Counted from the stretch's first letter, positions 1 to 39,437 are shown. The stretch: 39,437 nucleotides of DNA from a virus (IMGVR_UViG_2687453623_000006), one strand, 5' to 3'. The notes: generated by a model from the letters alone, not told the origin. Numbers and translations: made by a program.

Positions 1-342
1 CTACGCGACCTTTTTTGCACGCTCTTCACGGCGTGCCAAATATTCAGCCACTGTTTCAATCCGTCCCAATTCTTCCTGGGTACGCATGTTGTTTTCAACT
101 TCCCAAAGATCAACTGCCGCCTGGAGGTTTAGCCAAAAATCGACTGTGGTATCAAAAACTTTCGCCAGACGGAATGCCATCTCAGTGGTGAGTTTACGAT
201 TGTTATTGATCAGTGCACTGACGCTATTACGATGAACATGCAGCAACTCTGCTAACTCATTGATTTTCAAATCGAGCGGTTCCAGATATTCATAGAGAAG
301 AATATCTCCGGGTGTCGTCGGTTTTCTTGTTGCCTGTTTCAT
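1..342 (-). CDS. higA: HigA-family antitoxin (XRE-type HTH)
   Basis: 113-aa ORF with HTH core PGDILLYEYLEPLDLKINELAELLHVHRNSVSALINNNRKLTTEMAFRLAKVFDTTVDFWLNLQ typical of HigA antidotes; 35 bp downstream of a HigB-like ORF on the same strand. Confidence 0.8.
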   Translation of the reverse strand: MKQATRKPTTPGDILLYEYLEPLDLKINELAELLHVHRNSVSALINNNRKLTTEMAFRLAKVFDTTVDFWLNLQAAVDLWEVENNMRTQEELGRIETVAEYLARREERAKKVA

Positions 343-377: not shown

Positions 378-680
378 TTAGTAGTTGTGTGGGTCTAAAA
401 ACAATTCTTCGGCCTTGCCATTAACCCATTTAAAAATCAGTCGGTACTGTTTATTCACTCTAATGGAGGAGTATTCCTGTAATTTCCCGGATAACTCTTC
501 GTATCGGTTCCCCGGAGGGGAGCGTAAATCCCGATGAGAAGTGGCAGCATTAATGATGTCCAACTTTCGTGATAACGTGGTATGGATTTCAGCAGGGATC
601 TTTCGATGTGGCGTTGAATGGACAAAAAAATCAGCCAACCAGGCATCACGAAAACTCCTTATATTTTTCTTTTGAGCCAT
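378..680 (-). CDS. higB: HigB-family toxin (RelE/ParE superfamily mRNA interferase)
   Basis: 100-aa ORF; IRSF near N-terminus, SPPGNRYEELSGK and WRxxF-like RLIFKW segment and C-terminal HNY match the HigB killer-protein pattern; toxin-first operon order with higA. Confidence 0.75.
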   Translation of the reverse strand: MAQKKNIRSFRDAWLADFFVHSTPHRKIPAEIHTTLSRKLDIINAATSHRDLRSPPGNRYEELSGKLQEYSSIRVNKQYRLIFKWVNGKAEELFLDPHNY

Positions 681-1069
681 TCCTCTCTCATCTCCTTGTC
701 CATTATTTAATCATTGTAATGCACACAAGCACTGTGCACAAGTGCAACAATCAACTCCATTTGCGCCATCCCTCCCCGCGCGCTAGCATGATATTTCACA
801 AAGGGAGGTCGTATGGATCTGTTGTACCGGGTAAAAACGCTTTGGGCCGCGCTGCGCGGTAATCATTACACCTTGATCAGACATGAGATAAATGAAGGGG
901 GATCCGTGAGATAAATAACGAATTGGAGTGGGTTAACATGGGTTCTGGTGAACAGAACTGAAATTCTTTTCCGCTATACGATAGATAAGTCGGGCATTGA
1001 AATCATCCTTCCTGGCAACTTAGAATCGAGTTTGCTGAAACATGACCCGTAACAAAAAGGATGATTCCA

Positions 1070-1231
1070 ATGACTACTCAAAACAATAAGCATGACAGCC
1101 TGGATTACTCAGAAAAGCCCAAAAGCAAGCACATTGTGACGTTCGAGCGCGATTCCGGTAGAAAAGGAGAATCGTCTTCCTCTGCCAATAAAACCACTAT
1201 GCCGGCAGCTCCTGCTCCAGGGAAAAAATAA
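1070..1231 (+). CDS. hypothetical small hydrophilic protein (53 aa), doubtful
   Basis: ATG at 1070 preceded by AAGGA about 9 nt upstream; below the ORF-track cutoff; stop abuts the stop of a convergent minus-strand gene. Confidence 0.2.
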   Translation: MTTQNNKHDSLDYSEKPKSKHIVTFERDSGRKGESSSSANKTTMPAAPAPGKK

Positions 1232-1234
1232 ACA

Positions 1235-1867
1235 TCATTCATCGTTCGTTGCACGAACGCGCCTGATCTCCACTCTGGCAATCTGATCTGCTGGAATATA
1301 GGTTGCCAGAGCTCCCCAGTACTTATCAACCACGCCTTTATACTCTTCCCATTCGTTACTTCCTGAAGGGCTGCTGTGCGTGACGTAAAGAACCATATCG
1401 CCTTTATTTCCCAGGGTAAACGGACCGTTAGGCCACTCTTCAAAGTTCCCTGGCAGCCGTGACATCATACCGGAACCATCGCGAAGAATCACTCTGACCT
1501 CGGTGACGCTGAAGCCTGTTTGATCAAACATTGCCTGCCATGCTGAGCTGGTATTGTCAGACCATGAAATATCATTATTCCACAGTAATCTGTACATCCA
1601 TTTGCGACCGTACCTGCGCCACCACGCACCGCATGTAACGGCACACAGAAGTGCTGGGGGGGTTGCCAGCCAGGCATTCAGACCTGCCCACATAACAGCC
1701 TGGTAAGCCATCATTGCTGTCAGGCCAAAAATCAGCGAAGAAAAAGTCACCTCAATGGGTTTGTGGTGATCCTTCAGCCCCACATTCGCAATAAAATACC
1801 CAATATAGCCACTGGTCAGGGTCACCAGTGTTGCCCATGGCAGATTTAATAACGAAACGTCAAACAT
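1235..1867 (-). CDS. membrane protein of unknown function (N-terminal transmembrane segments plus soluble C-terminal domain); prophage cargo candidate
   Basis: Long minus ORF (1235..1945); preferred start is the internal ATG at 1867 (MFDVSLL...) with GGGAGAA RBS; hydrophobic stretches LVTLTSGYIGYFIANVGL, FSSLIFGLTAMMAYQAVMWAGL, PALLCAVTCGAWW; same strand and just downstream of mor. Confidence 0.6.
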   Translation of the reverse strand: MFDVSLLNLPWATLVTLTSGYIGYFIANVGLKDHHKPIEVTFSSLIFGLTAMMAYQAVMWAGLNAWLATPPALLCAVTCGAWWRRYGRKWMYRLLWNNDISWSDNTSSAWQAMFDQTGFSVTEVRVILRDGSGMMSRLPGNFEEWPNGPFTLGNKGDMVLYVTHSSPSGSNEWEEYKGVVDKYWGALATYIPADQIARVEIRRVRATNDE

Positions 1868-1981
1868 ATTTTCTCCCTGCATCCTGAATATTACATAGAG
1901 AGCATAAAAAAAGCACGGTAAAGGGTCTACCGTGCTCTTATACAATAAGGAGATTTTTGAAAGGACTTTAACAAGCAGGAA

Positions 1982-2380
1982 TTATCTGGATTTGTTAACG
2001 TCTTTCGTCTCCTCTGGCAGATCTTCATCAAACAACCTGCCCTGCATCCGATCCAGTTCTTCTTTTCTGACCCGCTTAACCACGCTGTAGACCCACTGAA
2101 GCGAAACACCAAACTTGCGGGCCAGTTCGTGGTGGTTGCGTCCGTTAAACTCCCTGAAGATTTCCCGGTCGCGCTGACTGACCTTCCATACCATGCCCAT
2201 CGGGAAATAAACGTTTTGCCCGCCCCAGACCTGCATCATTCGGTTCGCGACGGCCTGACCAATCTGGTCGGCAATTGCGGGCTCAATATCAATAATCTCG
2301 CGAACGGTCTCAGAGGTATGCTGTGCCAGCTCCACCAGGAGTTCCGGCCCTTTACTTCGAAACTGATTCAGGTCGCTCAT
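1982..2380 (-). CDS. mor: Mor/C-family transcriptional activator
   Basis: 132-aa ORF with C-terminal HTH (HHELARKFGVSLQWVYSVVKRVRKEE) and size typical of Mu Mor; last recognisable early gene. Confidence 0.75.
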   Translation of the reverse strand: MSDLNQFRSKGPELLVELAQHTSETVREIIDIEPAIADQIGQAVANRMMQVWGGQNVYFPMGMVWKVSQRDREIFREFNGRNHHELARKFGVSLQWVYSVVKRVRKEELDRMQGRLFDEDLPEETKDVNKSR

Positions 2381-2804
2381 GTTTGACTCCCGCAGCTCTG
2401 CGCTGCCACTTCTTCAGTTTCTCAATAACACTGCTTGCCTGTTCAGTACTGAGCCAGCGCAGGGCGCTGATGCCCGTTTCCCGCTTGATCCACCGCGCTA
2501 ATGCATTTTCTGAACGGTCACGAACAATGCCGGCAGCAGCCATTTCAAGCCATAGCGCACGGATTTTCCTGGACTGCGGATGGTTATCCAGCGGTAAACC
2601 GGAGCTGGCTTTTCCGGCAGGCTTAACGCGAAAGCCTTTCCTTTTCATGGATTCCAGCACGCAGTTTAGTTGTGTGGTATCCATTCCTTTGGTTGAGGCT
2701 TTACCGGTCAGCCCCTGTAACATCTGGCGGTAGGTGTCTTCATCCATACCCAGTTCATTACGGGCAATATGAATGAGCTGGATAAGACGTTGTTTAGTCA
2801 TCAT
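2352..2804 (-). CDS. gemA: GemA-like protein (Mu gp16 family)
   Basis: ORF 2352..2843; preferred start ATGATG at 2804 with AAGGAG RBS; N-terminal MTKQRLIQLIHIARNELGMDEDTYRQML resembles GemA; lies immediately upstream of mor as in Mu. Confidence 0.6.
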   Translation of the reverse strand: MMTKQRLIQLIHIARNELGMDEDTYRQMLQGLTGKASTKGMDTTQLNCVLESMKRKGFRVKPAGKASSGLPLDNHPQSRKIRALWLEMAAAGIVRDRSENALARWIKRETGISALRWLSTEQASSVIEKLKKWQRRAAGVKHERPESVSK

Positions 2805-3009
2805 CGTTGCTCCTTTTACCTGCGCCACCGATATAATCGACATATAAAGGAAGCGCCACAGGCCAGCACAGGAACATCACCGACCAGCTAATCCAGTAGC
2901 CAGCACCACTGTAACGTGAATAAAACCCTGAACGGCGGTGCAGTTCAGCAGTACACCAACCGACAAAACAATACCAGAACAGGGCACATACAACAGATTC
3001 AGCCGTCAT
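2794..3009 (-). CDS. small hydrophobic protein (about 71 aa), hypothetical
   Basis: Internal start of ORF 2794..3165 (MTAESVVCALFWYCFVGW...) gives a tightly packed small gene with two hydrophobic segments. Confidence 0.3.
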   Translation of the reverse strand: MTAESVVCALFWYCFVGWCTAELHRRSGFYSRYSGAGYWISWSVMFLCWPVALPLYVDYIGGAGKRSNDDD

Positions 3010-3229
3010 TCTGAATATCCCCCCAACTGATATGAATATTACGGGCAGCAATGACAGGGTCGTTATTCCACCATGCACCTGACATGTATTTTTCAACCTG
3101 TTCGCGTCCGGCAATAACACCAATTGTGATCCCCGGCCTGACGTTCTTAAAAAAGGCGCGGGCAAAAAGGTATCTGGCAGATATTCGGCAGGCTTTTAAT
3201 TTCCGGCTTTTACCTGATAGCGTAATCAT
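2999..3229 (-). CDS. hypothetical protein (76 aa)
   Basis: ORF packed between the DUF2786-like gene and the small membrane ORF in the early operon; no recognisable motif. Confidence 0.3.
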   Translation of the reverse strand: MITLSGKSRKLKACRISARYLFARAFFKNVRPGITIGVIAGREQVEKYMSGAWWNNDPVIAARNIHISWGDIQNDG

Positions 3230-37152: not shown

Positions 37153-37767
37153 TCAGCTGGCAAGTGCCAGTGGCGCTTCCGGCCAGCTGATTTCAGGTGC
37201 CGTGCTGATATCCAGTGCGTTCAGCTCGTCGATATAATCCAGCACGGCGTTCAGTTTTGCCGTTTCTTCTGGTGTCAGACTGCGACCAGCACGCAGTTTG
37301 AGGTTGATAAGATCGACGGACGCCATCGCCTGTTTCACCCGTTGCTGGCGTTGCTGTCTGGCAACCTCCAGTTCTGCGGCTCGCTGCCGTTCAGTATCGG
37401 TTACCCACGCCTCACCGTTCCAGGTATCCCATGGCGTGGCCGGCTGTTTTGTGGTGGTGTCCGCCGGGTAATCACCCGGTTGGGTAATCAGAACGGGGTT
37501 ACCGTTCTCCGTGCTGTATACCGTCTCGCCGCGGTGATCAGGCACATGCTCCCACCCGTTCAGCGTGGCAGTCCGGCAAACCACGTAACCCGAAATTGCC
37601 TCCGGCGGTGCATCGGCGCACGAATGTGCCGGAGTACCCACCCCAAGGGCGAGATACTCCACAGAGGATGAGGTGTATTCCCGGGTTTCCTCGTCATAGT
37701 GATATACAGTGATCTCGCCCGCTACAGTGGCGATACCGTTTTCATCCAGAACTGCAGTGTTACTCAT
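37153..37767 (-). CDS. tail fibre assembly chaperone (Mu U-like), in currently silent orientation
   Basis: 204 aa; directly downstream of the minus-strand cassette at 37767..38249 with overlapping stop/start. Confidence 0.7.
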   Translation of the reverse strand: MSNTAVLDENGIATVAGEITVYHYDEETREYTSSSVEYLALGVGTPAHSCADAPPEAISGYVVCRTATLNGWEHVPDHRGETVYSTENGNPVLITQPGDYPADTTTKQPATPWDTWNGEAWVTDTERQRAAELEVARQQRQQRVKQAMASVDLINLKLRAGRSLTPEETAKLNAVLDYIDELNALDISTAPEISWPEAPLALAS

Positions 37768-38249
37768 TAAACTGCCCTCACAATGTAATTAAGTGCAATG
37801 CTACGGGGTCTGACAGTGATACCCTTCGCATACCCGCTTCTGATAGAGGTCAGAATAGTAGCCTGCATACCATTGTCTGACATTGCCACGACAGGATCGC
37901 TGAATGTTGTCCCGTCCGGCATTTTAAAGCTGCCCTCACGAAGGTCTGTAATGGAATCTTCATTGTTGAATCCCATGCCGACTATCCCCGAGGTTCCCGT
38001 AGTGTCCTGGTTATAATAATCCAGCATTGCTGTTCTTAACAGCGTTGCCCCTTGTGCGGACAGCAACTTACGTCCTGTATCAACTTTGCGCCCGTCGTCC
38101 CATCCACGGATAAACTCACCGCGTAAATCGGGAAGACGGAGGGTCGGGTAGACTCTGGCCAGAACAGGATATTGTTCTTTTGTAAAGGCGCGCCCGTCGC
38201 ACTTTAACCAGCCTGCTGGCGGTGTGGCGGTGGGAAACGGAACAGGCAC
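37767..38249 (-). CDS. alternative tail-fibre C-terminal cassette B (currently unfused)
   Basis: N-terminal 60 aa PVPFPTATPPAGWLKCDGRAFTKEQYPVLARVYPTLRLPDLRGEFIRGWDDGRKVD nearly identical to the C-terminal region of the expressed fibre, then diverges. Confidence 0.7.
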   Translation of the reverse strand: MPVPFPTATPPAGWLKCDGRAFTKEQYPVLARVYPTLRLPDLRGEFIRGWDDGRKVDTGRKLLSAQGATLLRTAMLDYYNQDTTGTSGIVGMGFNNEDSITDLREGSFKMPDGTTFSDPVVAMSDNGMQATILTSIRSGYAKGITVRPRSIALNYIVRAV

Positions 38250-38290
38250 ACCAACGGGTAGCGCCGAGCCTTCTCCTAAACCAACGTTTT
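38086..38290 (-). repeat. inversion-site homology block B
   Basis: Inverted copy of block A; gix-like core AAAACGTTGGTTTAGG on the minus strand at about 38262..38290. Confidence 0.65.
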
Positions 38291-38793
38291 TATGCGGCCC
38301 TTACGATGTAATTAAACGCAACATTGCGGGGGCGCATTGATATCCATGCCCCGGTAAAATTATCCTCCGCTGTCCTTTGAATACCCGTTATAGAGTTATC
38401 TGCTGATGCAGGAACATAATCGCTATTATTTCCTGCTTTAGGATTAGCTGGGTTTCCAACGGTTATAACAGAATCAGCAGTAGCAAAAGCGATACCTACT
38501 TTGACATTAGTATTCAGATCGTAACCGTAATAATCCTGCAAAGCTGTACGAATAAATGTTGCAGCCTGACCACTTAGCAATGAACGCCCCGTATCAACTT
38601 TGCGCCCGTCGTCCCATCCACGGATAAACTCACCGCGCAAATCGGGAAGACGGAGGGTCGGGTAGACTCTGGCCAGAACAGGATATTGTTCTTTTGTAAA
38701 GGCGCGCCCGTCGCACTTTAACCAGCCTGCTGGCGGTGTGGCGGTGGGCCATGGAACAGGCACACCAACAGGCAGTGCAGAGCCTTCCCCCAA
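38290..38793 (-). CDS. alternative tail-fibre C-terminal cassette C (currently unfused)
   Basis: N-terminus GEGSALPVGVPVPWPTATPPAGWLKCDGRAFTKEQYPVLARVYPTLRLPDLRGEFIRGWDDGRKVD matches the expressed fibre, then a distinct C-terminal domain. Confidence 0.7.
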   Translation of the reverse strand: MGEGSALPVGVPVPWPTATPPAGWLKCDGRAFTKEQYPVLARVYPTLRLPDLRGEFIRGWDDGRKVDTGRSLLSGQAATFIRTALQDYYGYDLNTNVKVGIAFATADSVITVGNPANPKAGNNSDYVPASADNSITGIQRTAEDNFTGAWISMRPRNVAFNYIVRAA

Positions 38794-38864: not shown

Positions 38865-39437
38865 ATGCTGATTGGCTACATACGTGTGTCAACAAATGAC
38901 CAAAACACAGATTTGCAACGCAATGCATTAATGTGCGCAGGATGTGAACAGATTTTTGAGGACAAAATGAGCGGAACCAAGTCGGAACGACCAGGCCTGA
39001 AACGCGCTTTAAAGTGCCTTAAAAGAGGGGATACATTGGTGGTCTGGAAGCTGGATCGGTTGGGTAGAAGAATGAAACACCTCATTGCTCTCACAGAAGA
39101 GCTACGCGCAAAAGGTGTCAATTTTCGCAGTCTGACGGATTCAATCGATACCAGCACTCCGATGGGAAGGTTCTTTTTTCATATGATGGGTGCACTGGCA
39201 GAAATGGAGCGTGAACTGATAGTTGAGCGCACGCTGGCAGGACTGGCTGCTGCGCGAGCACAAGGAAGAGTTGGAGGACGTCGCCCGAAACTGACGAAGG
39301 AGCAGCATGAGCAGATCGCAAGATTGCTCCAGAAAGGGTATGACAGAAAGCGGCTGGCAATTATCTATGATATTGGACTGTCAACGATCTACCGCTACCA
39401 CCCTGTTGGGACTGTCATAACGCAACCTGAAATGTAA
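38865..39437 (+). CDS. gin: Gin/Hin/Cin-family serine DNA invertase
   Basis: 190 aa from ATG 38865 (AAGGGAG RBS); MLIGYIRVSTNDQNTDLQRNAL with catalytic Ser, C-terminal HTH; near-identical in pattern to Mu Gin as recalled; adjacent to inverted-repeat-flanked fibre cassettes. Confidence 0.85.
   Translation: MLIGYIRVSTNDQNTDLQRNALMCAGCEQIFEDKMSGTKSERPGLKRALKCLKRGDTLVVWKLDRLGRRMKHLIALTEELRAKGVNFRSLTDSIDTSTPMGRFFFHMMGALAEMERELIVERTLAGLAAARAQGRVGGRRPKLTKEQHEQIARLLQKGYDRKRLAIIYDIGLSTIYRYHPVGTVITQPEM

Follow-up and report, generated by a model that had tools for sequence, protein, structure and literature searches.

What does a gene for an inner-membrane protein do when it is placed between the last backbone gene of a Mu-type prophage and the end of that prophage? 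The question is raised by positions 1235-1867 of a 39,437-nucleotide stretch of viral DNA (IMGVR_UViG_2687453623_000006), referred to below as the window. A first-pass annotation made from the sequence alone had described this gene as left-end cargo encoding a membrane protein, and as a candidate single-gene factor for defence or lysogenic conversion. The features that bear on where the prophage begins are as follows.

1-342, minus strand: higA, recognised by a HigA family match, in the host flank
378-680, minus strand: higB, recognised by a HigB family match, in the host flank
875-935, plus strand: left end of the BcepMu-like prophage, beginning TGATCAGACATGAGATAAATGA..., placed by the match boundary and by the ends of relatives
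884-893 and 907-916, plus strand: two TGAGATAAAT repeats, presumed transposase-binding sites

Positions 1-874 of the window are E. coli chromosome flanking the prophage and lie outside the element. A query spanning 690-2000 finds matches in 5423 of 5426 complete E. coli genomes but only 113 of them match from 873, 874 or 875 onwards, as would be expected if 690-873 is common host DNA. The genes that lie outside the boundary differ among these 113 genomes and include gudD, zraS, mdfA, yfiB, fimbrial genes and others. In Klebsiella relatives the prophage end reads ...CTGATCA and is followed by unrelated host DNA, and across the relatives the ends are either ...CTGATCA or TGATTAGACTTGAGATAAATGA. 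The match boundary at 873-875 with its varying flanks, together with the Klebsiella ends, puts the prophage start at 875, in agreement with the left-end location assigned by the first-pass annotation. With 1-874 being host flank, it would be a mistake to regard higBA as cargo of the phage.

The early genes point towards this left end and the late genes are on the opposite strand, which is the layout of BcepMu-type phages and not that of Mu; the phage PhiKM, a close relative of the prophage in the window, is classified as a Bcepmuvirus. Upstream of mor, and on the same strand, an early operon of the Mu type continues with gemA and its other genes. A small hydrophobic ORF of this operon (2794-3165, minus strand), located between gemA and a DUF2786/DUF7168 gene, matches phrog_6436 (unknown function) and encodes another uncharacterised membrane protein. 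The gene under study and its neighbours on the mor side are arranged as follows.

1235-1867, minus strand: ORF for a 210-aa inner-membrane protein (RefSeq WP_001571573.1), a distant relative of DUF6338
1909-1939, minus strand: strong intrinsic terminator with a 14-bp stem and a T-run, between mor and the 210-aa gene
1982-2380, minus strand: mor, a late activator of the Mor/C family (Pfam Mor, E 1e-43) and the last backbone gene

The ORF runs on the minus strand from an ATG at 1867 to a TGA at 1235-1237 and is preceded by a GGGAG Shine-Dalgarno sequence 6-7 nt before the start. It is co-directional with mor and distal to it, as the first-pass annotation had it, at a distance of 114 bp, and lies about 360 bp inside the left end. 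Hydropathy and an AlphaFold2 model, built on 32 homologues with a mean pLDDT of 81.7, concur in placing three TM helices at approximately residues 11-27, 37-60 and 65-97, after which come a short helix and, at 119-205, a soluble domain rich in beta structure. The N-terminal TM segments and the soluble C-terminal domain that had been described for a protein of about 210 aa are thus both borne out. In an alignment of 73 sequences the lysine plus arginine counts are 0.3 for the N-terminus, 2.0 for loop 1, 0.3 for loop 2 and 4.6 for the region after TM3, a distribution that points to an N-out/C-in topology and therefore to a cytoplasmic location of the soluble domain.

In the model the soluble domain has the elements of an Sm fold, an N-terminal helix and a five-stranded bent sheet, and is predicted to form an Sm/SH3-like beta-barrel, a likeness for which all Foldseek E-values are 0.03 or above. 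It differs from Sm and LSm proteins in that the barrel is tethered to the membrane and in that the protein shows no significant sequence similarity to PDB chains (best E 0.84 in a sequence profile search of the PDB). The mechanosensitive channel MscS likewise consists of three TM helices and an Sm-like domain. An MscS-like mini-channel was considered and rejected, as hhalign gives it a probability of 0.4 % and MscS is absent from the structural hits listed.

Residues that are invariant or near-invariant among the homologues fall into three clusters. The first covers TM1 and the first cytoplasmic loop (L9, P10, W11, G20, Y21, Y24, N28, G30, H34 and H35), the second is located at the exit from the membrane (W83, R84 and R88), and the third is distributed over the barrel (S101, D104, A109, W110, G131, G148, G153, D157, Y161, T163, G185, P192 and R202). 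The motif LPWATLVT..GY..Y..N.G..HHK in TM1 and its loop is conserved as strongly as the soluble domain, which argues that the N-terminus is more than an anchor.

Searches of Pfam, NCBIfam and PADLOC return no family match for the 210-aa protein, consistent with the earlier description of a soluble domain with no recognisable motif, and its only match in PHROGs is phrog_12870 (unknown function). At E<=1 no family in PADLOC-DB v2 matches either this protein or the product of the small ORF described below. No similarity to a known defence, housekeeping or solved-structure family was detected; the homology to a housekeeping protein that the first-pass annotation had set against its own reading was thus looked for and not found. 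The protein nevertheless belongs to a real conserved gene family, albeit one without a characterised member. There are 69 close homologues, and a profile search recovers at least 500 clusters at 50 % identity (E<=1e-3). Nearly all of the best 150 of these matches are 196-260 aa long and align over almost their full length, and the eight longest contain no recognisable fused domain, only extensions attributable to start codons or low complexity.

On sequence evidence the family appears to be a distant branch of Pfam DUF6338 (PF19865), itself a family of unknown function. The 210-aa protein does not match PF19865 even at E<=1, but 18 of the 32 aligned relatives do so weakly (best E 1.4e-6), precomputed PF19865 tags are present on P0050-53 and P0060, and NCBI names one relative a 'DUF6338 family protein'. 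The architecture is also shared, since proteins of both groups are around 200 aa long and have a membrane region at the N-terminus and a further domain at the C-terminus, and the 210-aa protein falls within the approximately 170-230 aa that characterise PF19865.

Comparison across related prophages, which the first-pass annotation had named as a check, shows that the gene is cargo and not part of the core. Of 5426 complete E. coli genomes, 641 have the gemA-mor backbone and only 131 the 633-bp gene, which about 80 % of near-identical prophages lack. In EC958, 503829 and PhiKM mor is the last gene and the phage end follows within about 165 bp. The similarity of these three to the window is confined to 874-913 and to the sequence from 2022 onwards, and the approximately 1.1 kb between about 914 and 2021 is therefore an insert, an accessory cassette or moron that separates mor from the left end of a BcepMu-like prophage. 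KP12 and PhiKM had been taken for phages that carry another gene behind mor, and for PhiKM this is wrong. Its annotated 'Fe2+ ABC transporter permease protein 2' CDS (3430-3774 of L001) is located beyond the TGATTAGACTTGAGATAAATGA end, in host DNA. The GenBank record of PhiKM (L001, PQ738613.1) is permuted or partial and holds host DNA past the left end.

The cassette has also moved between backbones, since in prophages that share 97-99 % identity with the window in GemA, DUF2786 and MuB the alleles of the 210-aa gene are no more than 68-72 % identical. Other Enterobacterales, among them Serratia, Klebsiella, Citrobacter, Salmonella and Symbiopectobacterium, carry homologues of 56-70 % identity in this slot behind mor. 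This behaviour corresponds to that of the prophage morons and lysogenic-conversion cassettes whose concept has been reviewed (PMC3594210): an optional insert, missing from near-identical phages, supplied with its own terminator and exchanged among backbones. It departs from that of a typical moron in that the main gene has no evident promoter and in that the cassette comprises two convergent genes instead of one.

In 11 of 16 enterobacterial loci a hairpin followed by a T-run, with a stem unrelated to that at 1909-1939, precedes the start codon by 35-45 nt, and this conserved terminator is likely to insulate the gene from the early operon. No promoter of the 210-aa gene passes a consensus scan, leaving its expression from the prophage unsupported by a promoter; the sole candidate is an extended -10-like element, TGTAATATT, that was read by eye. 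The orientation of the gene with the early operon and the lack of a clear promoter of its own would suit an accessory of the lytic cycle, for example a holin-like factor or one that acts in the timing of lysis, which would be expressed by read-through from the early or middle operon. The three-TM region has weak Foldseek matches in BFVD to LydA-type holins (E 0.03-1), but these are not significant, and 210 aa with a folded cytoplasmic domain is unlike a holin. The terminator that separates the gene from mor, the lack of the gene in about 80 % of sister prophages and the copies in non-phage islands make a lytic-cycle role the least likely of the alternatives, and a very improbable one. Holin function as such was rejected, because the matches are only of a weak and generic three-TM kind and the gene, behind mor at the end of the prophage, is not one of the late genes.

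The description as a single-gene factor could not be upheld, as the first-pass annotation had overlooked a second gene that faces the first. The features of this side of the cassette are as follows.

995-1012, plus strand: left arm of an inverted repeat (CATTGAAATCATCCTTCC), overlapping the -35 element of the small-ORF promoter
997-1026, plus strand: putative sigma-70-like promoter of the small ORF, TTGAAA-18-TAGAAT, matching the consensus at 10 of 12 positions
1056-1072, plus strand: right arm of the inverted repeat, containing the Shine-Dalgarno sequence and ATG of the small ORF
1070-1231, plus strand: partner gene, encoding a 53-aa microprotein (WP_001571575.1; phrog_15726, E 1e-41)

The partner ORF has an AAAGGA Shine-Dalgarno sequence 8 nt before its start, and its stop codon is 3 nt from that of the 210-aa gene, so that the two genes are convergent. 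The microprotein is hydrophilic, disordered and rich in proline, serine and lysine, with the sequence MTTQNNKHDSLDYSEKPK...PAAPAPGKK. Nearly all loci with sufficient DNA downstream have a small convergent ORF at the stop of the membrane-protein gene, either abutting it or overlapping it. Homologues of only 31-46 % identity, from metagenomes and from unrelated alphaproteobacterial prophages and islands (Bradyrhizobium, Afipia, Devosia, Ensifer, Pseudochrobactrum and Sphingobium), have such an ORF as well. By strict criteria such an ORF accompanies 26 of 35 membrane-protein genes as against 25 of 227 control genes drawn from the same loci (Fisher p 1e-14), and as the nine misses are for the most part ORFs that fall slightly beyond the interval that had been set, the real figure is about 32 of 35. 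Values of pN/pS between 0.01 and 0.48 in nine pairs of small ORFs indicate that the reading frame is under purifying selection.

The partner products are hydrophilic, 40-57 aa long and 15 % proline. They start in the manner of MT(x)K, contain a motif of the YSE/YTP type and have a basic C-terminus rich in proline that ends, for example, in PAPGKK, PPPPKK, PKPPGK or PPSPKKK. Partners of the Sphingobium type are nearly pure polyproline (…KAPPPPPPEAPPPPPPSR; L068 2008-2229, L102 1703-1804 and L103 3877-3993). Leave-clade-out HMMs establish no significant link between the enterobacterial and the alphaproteobacterial partners, nor from either to the Pseudomonas stutzeri microproteins discussed below, and the claim is therefore one of conserved position and composition and not of homology. 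The two-gene rule is broken by a single lineage, the prophages of the Arsenophonus/Pantoea persica type (L038, L057 and L059), in which an intact membrane-protein gene is followed by the phage end and no small ORF is present. An all-against-all BLASTP comparison of the neighbours identified no third gene that recurs with the pair.

The TTGAAA and TAGAAT elements of the small-ORF promoter are conserved across the enterobacterial loci, and transcripts that start there would run antisense into the 210-aa gene. The pairing of 995-1012 with 1056-1072 is kept in spite of changed bases in most of the enterobacterial loci that were folded (L007, L012, L035, L053, L056 and L058, for example) and is lost in L031, L033 and L041. 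The inverted repeat might silence the translation of transcripts that read through from host DNA, or it might structure the 3' end of the opposite transcript.

A further arrangement of this kind has been reported in P. stutzeri, where three novel proline-rich proteins of less than 50 aa are encoded directly downstream of the DUF6338 gene Pstu14405_RS12030 and were detected by digest-free mass spectrometry with 44-114 PSMs (PMC10433244). The authors regarded these microproteins as species-specific, and two of the sequences, MVSS...APTAPPPPKK and MTKK...SAPPPPPKKGG, are given in their report (PMC10433244). Both follow a pattern like that of the alphaproteobacterial partners. The likeness to the window consists in small proline-rich proteins of the form MTxKK...PPPPKK(G) that are encoded directly 3' of a DUF6338-type gene, and the mass spectrometry supports the notion that such partners are translated and abundant. 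The P. stutzeri genes differ in being triplicated and in lying on the same strand as the DUF6338 gene, whereas the window has a single convergent gene. Convergent orientation is thus not universal, and any control by antisense transcription is not general. Two tandem copies of the partner in L068 echo the three in P. stutzeri, and the copy number and orientation of the microprotein gene vary between lineages. In the literature library searched, for the RefSeq accessions, for membrane defence proteins of the Sm-like kind and for cargo of Mu-like prophages, the family is covered only by PMC10433244, and there appears to be no earlier description of a general pairing of the family with microproteins rich in proline.

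The surroundings of more distant homologues offer an indication of what the pair may do. Within unrelated prophages they occupy moron-type positions, amid head-completion genes (L046/L064), amid distal-tail and peptidase genes (L048, L049 and L066) and elsewhere among structural genes (L050 and L069). Outside prophages, one homologue is accompanied by a DRT reverse transcriptase (RT_UG17) with its SLATT partner, an IetA-like AAA-M41 protein and PDC-S10 (L060), a second has the Thoeris genes ThsB and ThsA directly upstream (L067), a third is located with Abi_alpha/PDC-S47 and PDC-S67 beside a serine recombinase (L061), and a fourth has a DUF4145 neighbour (L062). A 29 %-identical homologue is found at the very end of the 20.4-kb record of 'Synechococcus phage Ssp-JY41' (L003, PP438431.1). 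The 5.7-kb end that was examined also encodes a type IIG restriction-methylase, the toxin BrnT and a Bro-N/BstA-like protein, and looks like a defence-laden island or satellite rather than a typical phage genome. Among 40 neighbours from a second batch of ten more loci there are one strong IetA, one PD-Lambda-5_B and one Dam-type methylase, the rest being housekeeping or mobile-element genes. Overall, a recognisable defence neighbour is present in about 7 of about 19 distinct non-Mu contexts, which is a small sample.

Proximity to DRT, Thoeris, Abi_alpha and type IIG restriction-modification genes lends contextual support to a function in defence or exclusion. The defence reading is weakened by the lack of a PADLOC match, by the restriction of defence neighbours to about 7 of about 19 contexts and by the predominance of housekeeping and mobile-element genes in the second batch. 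On balance it is tentatively proposed that the pair could form a mobile module that acts at the membrane against phages, by abortive infection or in the manner of a toxin-antitoxin system. The membrane protein, probably oligomeric, would be the effector and would act through TM1 and the His-His loop, both of them highly conserved. Until infection upsets the balance, the effector would be kept low or inactive by the abundant microprotein and by the antisense transcript from the microprotein's promoter, and the proline-rich tail of the microprotein may bind to the barrel. A strict antidote role in this model is disfavoured by the Arsenophonus/Pantoea lineage, which has no partner gene, and by the co-directional genes of P. 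stutzeri. Such a module would resemble lambda RexAB, Kiwa KwaAB and toxin-antitoxin systems in pairing a membrane protein with another component that is small or soluble and in being carried by prophages or defence islands, with neighbours such as Thoeris, DRT and RM. It would differ from them in having no similarity to PADLOC families and in having a disordered, proline-rich and convergently encoded partner of 40-57 aa.

The same contexts bear on superinfection exclusion, in which the membrane protein would block the entry of incoming DNA or steps of its injection without killing the cell, as do P22 SieA, T4 Imm and HK97 gp15, with the microprotein in an accessory or regulatory role. An inner-membrane protein that is optional prophage cargo, many copies of which reside within prophages of unrelated types and which has a strongly conserved TM1 face, would suit such a function. 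However, no annotated exclusion family in PHROGs or Pfam resembles the 210-aa protein, most of its conserved mass is cytoplasmic, and the island copies beside Thoeris, DRT and RM are more typical of general defence than of phage-specific exclusion. Exclusion therefore seems unlikely.

It is equally doubtful that the pair is a selfish addiction module that, in the manner of a toxin-antitoxin system, stabilises its own mobile element and has no anti-phage role. A compact two-gene unit that is mobile among prophages, integrative elements and islands, and that in one locus adjoins BrnT and similar genes, is compatible with addiction, and an abundant, small and disordered partner is suited to be a labile antidote. 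The products of the two genes nonetheless show no similarity to known toxins or antitoxins, and the convergent layout and protein partner fit neither the type I nor the type II convention. Type II pairs are co-directional and co-transcribed, and here the genes converge with stops that are 3 nt apart or overlap; type I pairs combine a hydrophobic toxin of less than 60 aa with an antisense RNA, and here the membrane protein has 210 aa and the partner is protein-coding. The Arsenophonus/Pantoea lineage, which keeps an intact membrane-protein gene without the small ORF, also disfavours an obligate antidote.

A last alternative is that the cassette is a lysogenic-conversion factor that benefits the host through a non-defence role in the membrane, such as ion or stress homeostasis or envelope remodelling. 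The moron-like behaviour, the size of a family of at least 500 clusters with many chromosomal members, the housekeeping nature of many neighbours and the production of the P. stutzeri microproteins in ordinary growth conditions all agree with this. However, the searches link the 210-aa protein to no family of transporters, channels or enzymes, the comparison with MscS is negative, and copies recur beside defence systems and at variable slots in prophages, so that a conversion factor of this kind is considered improbable.

To return to the proposed anti-phage module, a bolder and rather unlikely version would extend it to DUF6338-type proteins and their microproteins at large, as a widespread and hitherto unrecognised two-component immune or toxin module. 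Tails of polyproline and lysine, with which the microprotein ends, are generally hard to translate. In the extended version the microprotein would be a short-lived reporter of the state of translation that restrains the membrane-anchored Sm/SH3-like effector; once an infecting phage had shut off the expression of host genes, the microprotein would be lost and the effector would bring about the collapse of the membrane.

If the pair does prove to be a defence or toxin module, a function would be assigned to DUF6338 and its relatives, at least 500 clusters at 50 % identity, and the P. stutzeri microproteins that were thought to be species-specific would belong to a general two-gene unit. The carriers are Mu-type prophages that occur in clinical E. 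coli, O25b:H4-ST131 and ABU 83972 among them; prophages of this kind can influence susceptibility to phages, which is of relevance to phage therapy. With about 1.1 kb the system is small and easy to clone. Whatever its function, the fixed end-to-end arrangement of the two genes across large evolutionary distances represents an unusual regulatory architecture that can be tested.

At the far side of the window the last base is that of the stop codon of a Gin/Hin-type serine invertase (MLIGYIRVSTNDQ...; 38866-39437, plus strand), and the right end of the prophage lies beyond it. The invertase is preceded by oppositely oriented ORFs (37153-38793, minus strand) that probably represent an invertible tail-fibre segment as in Mu.
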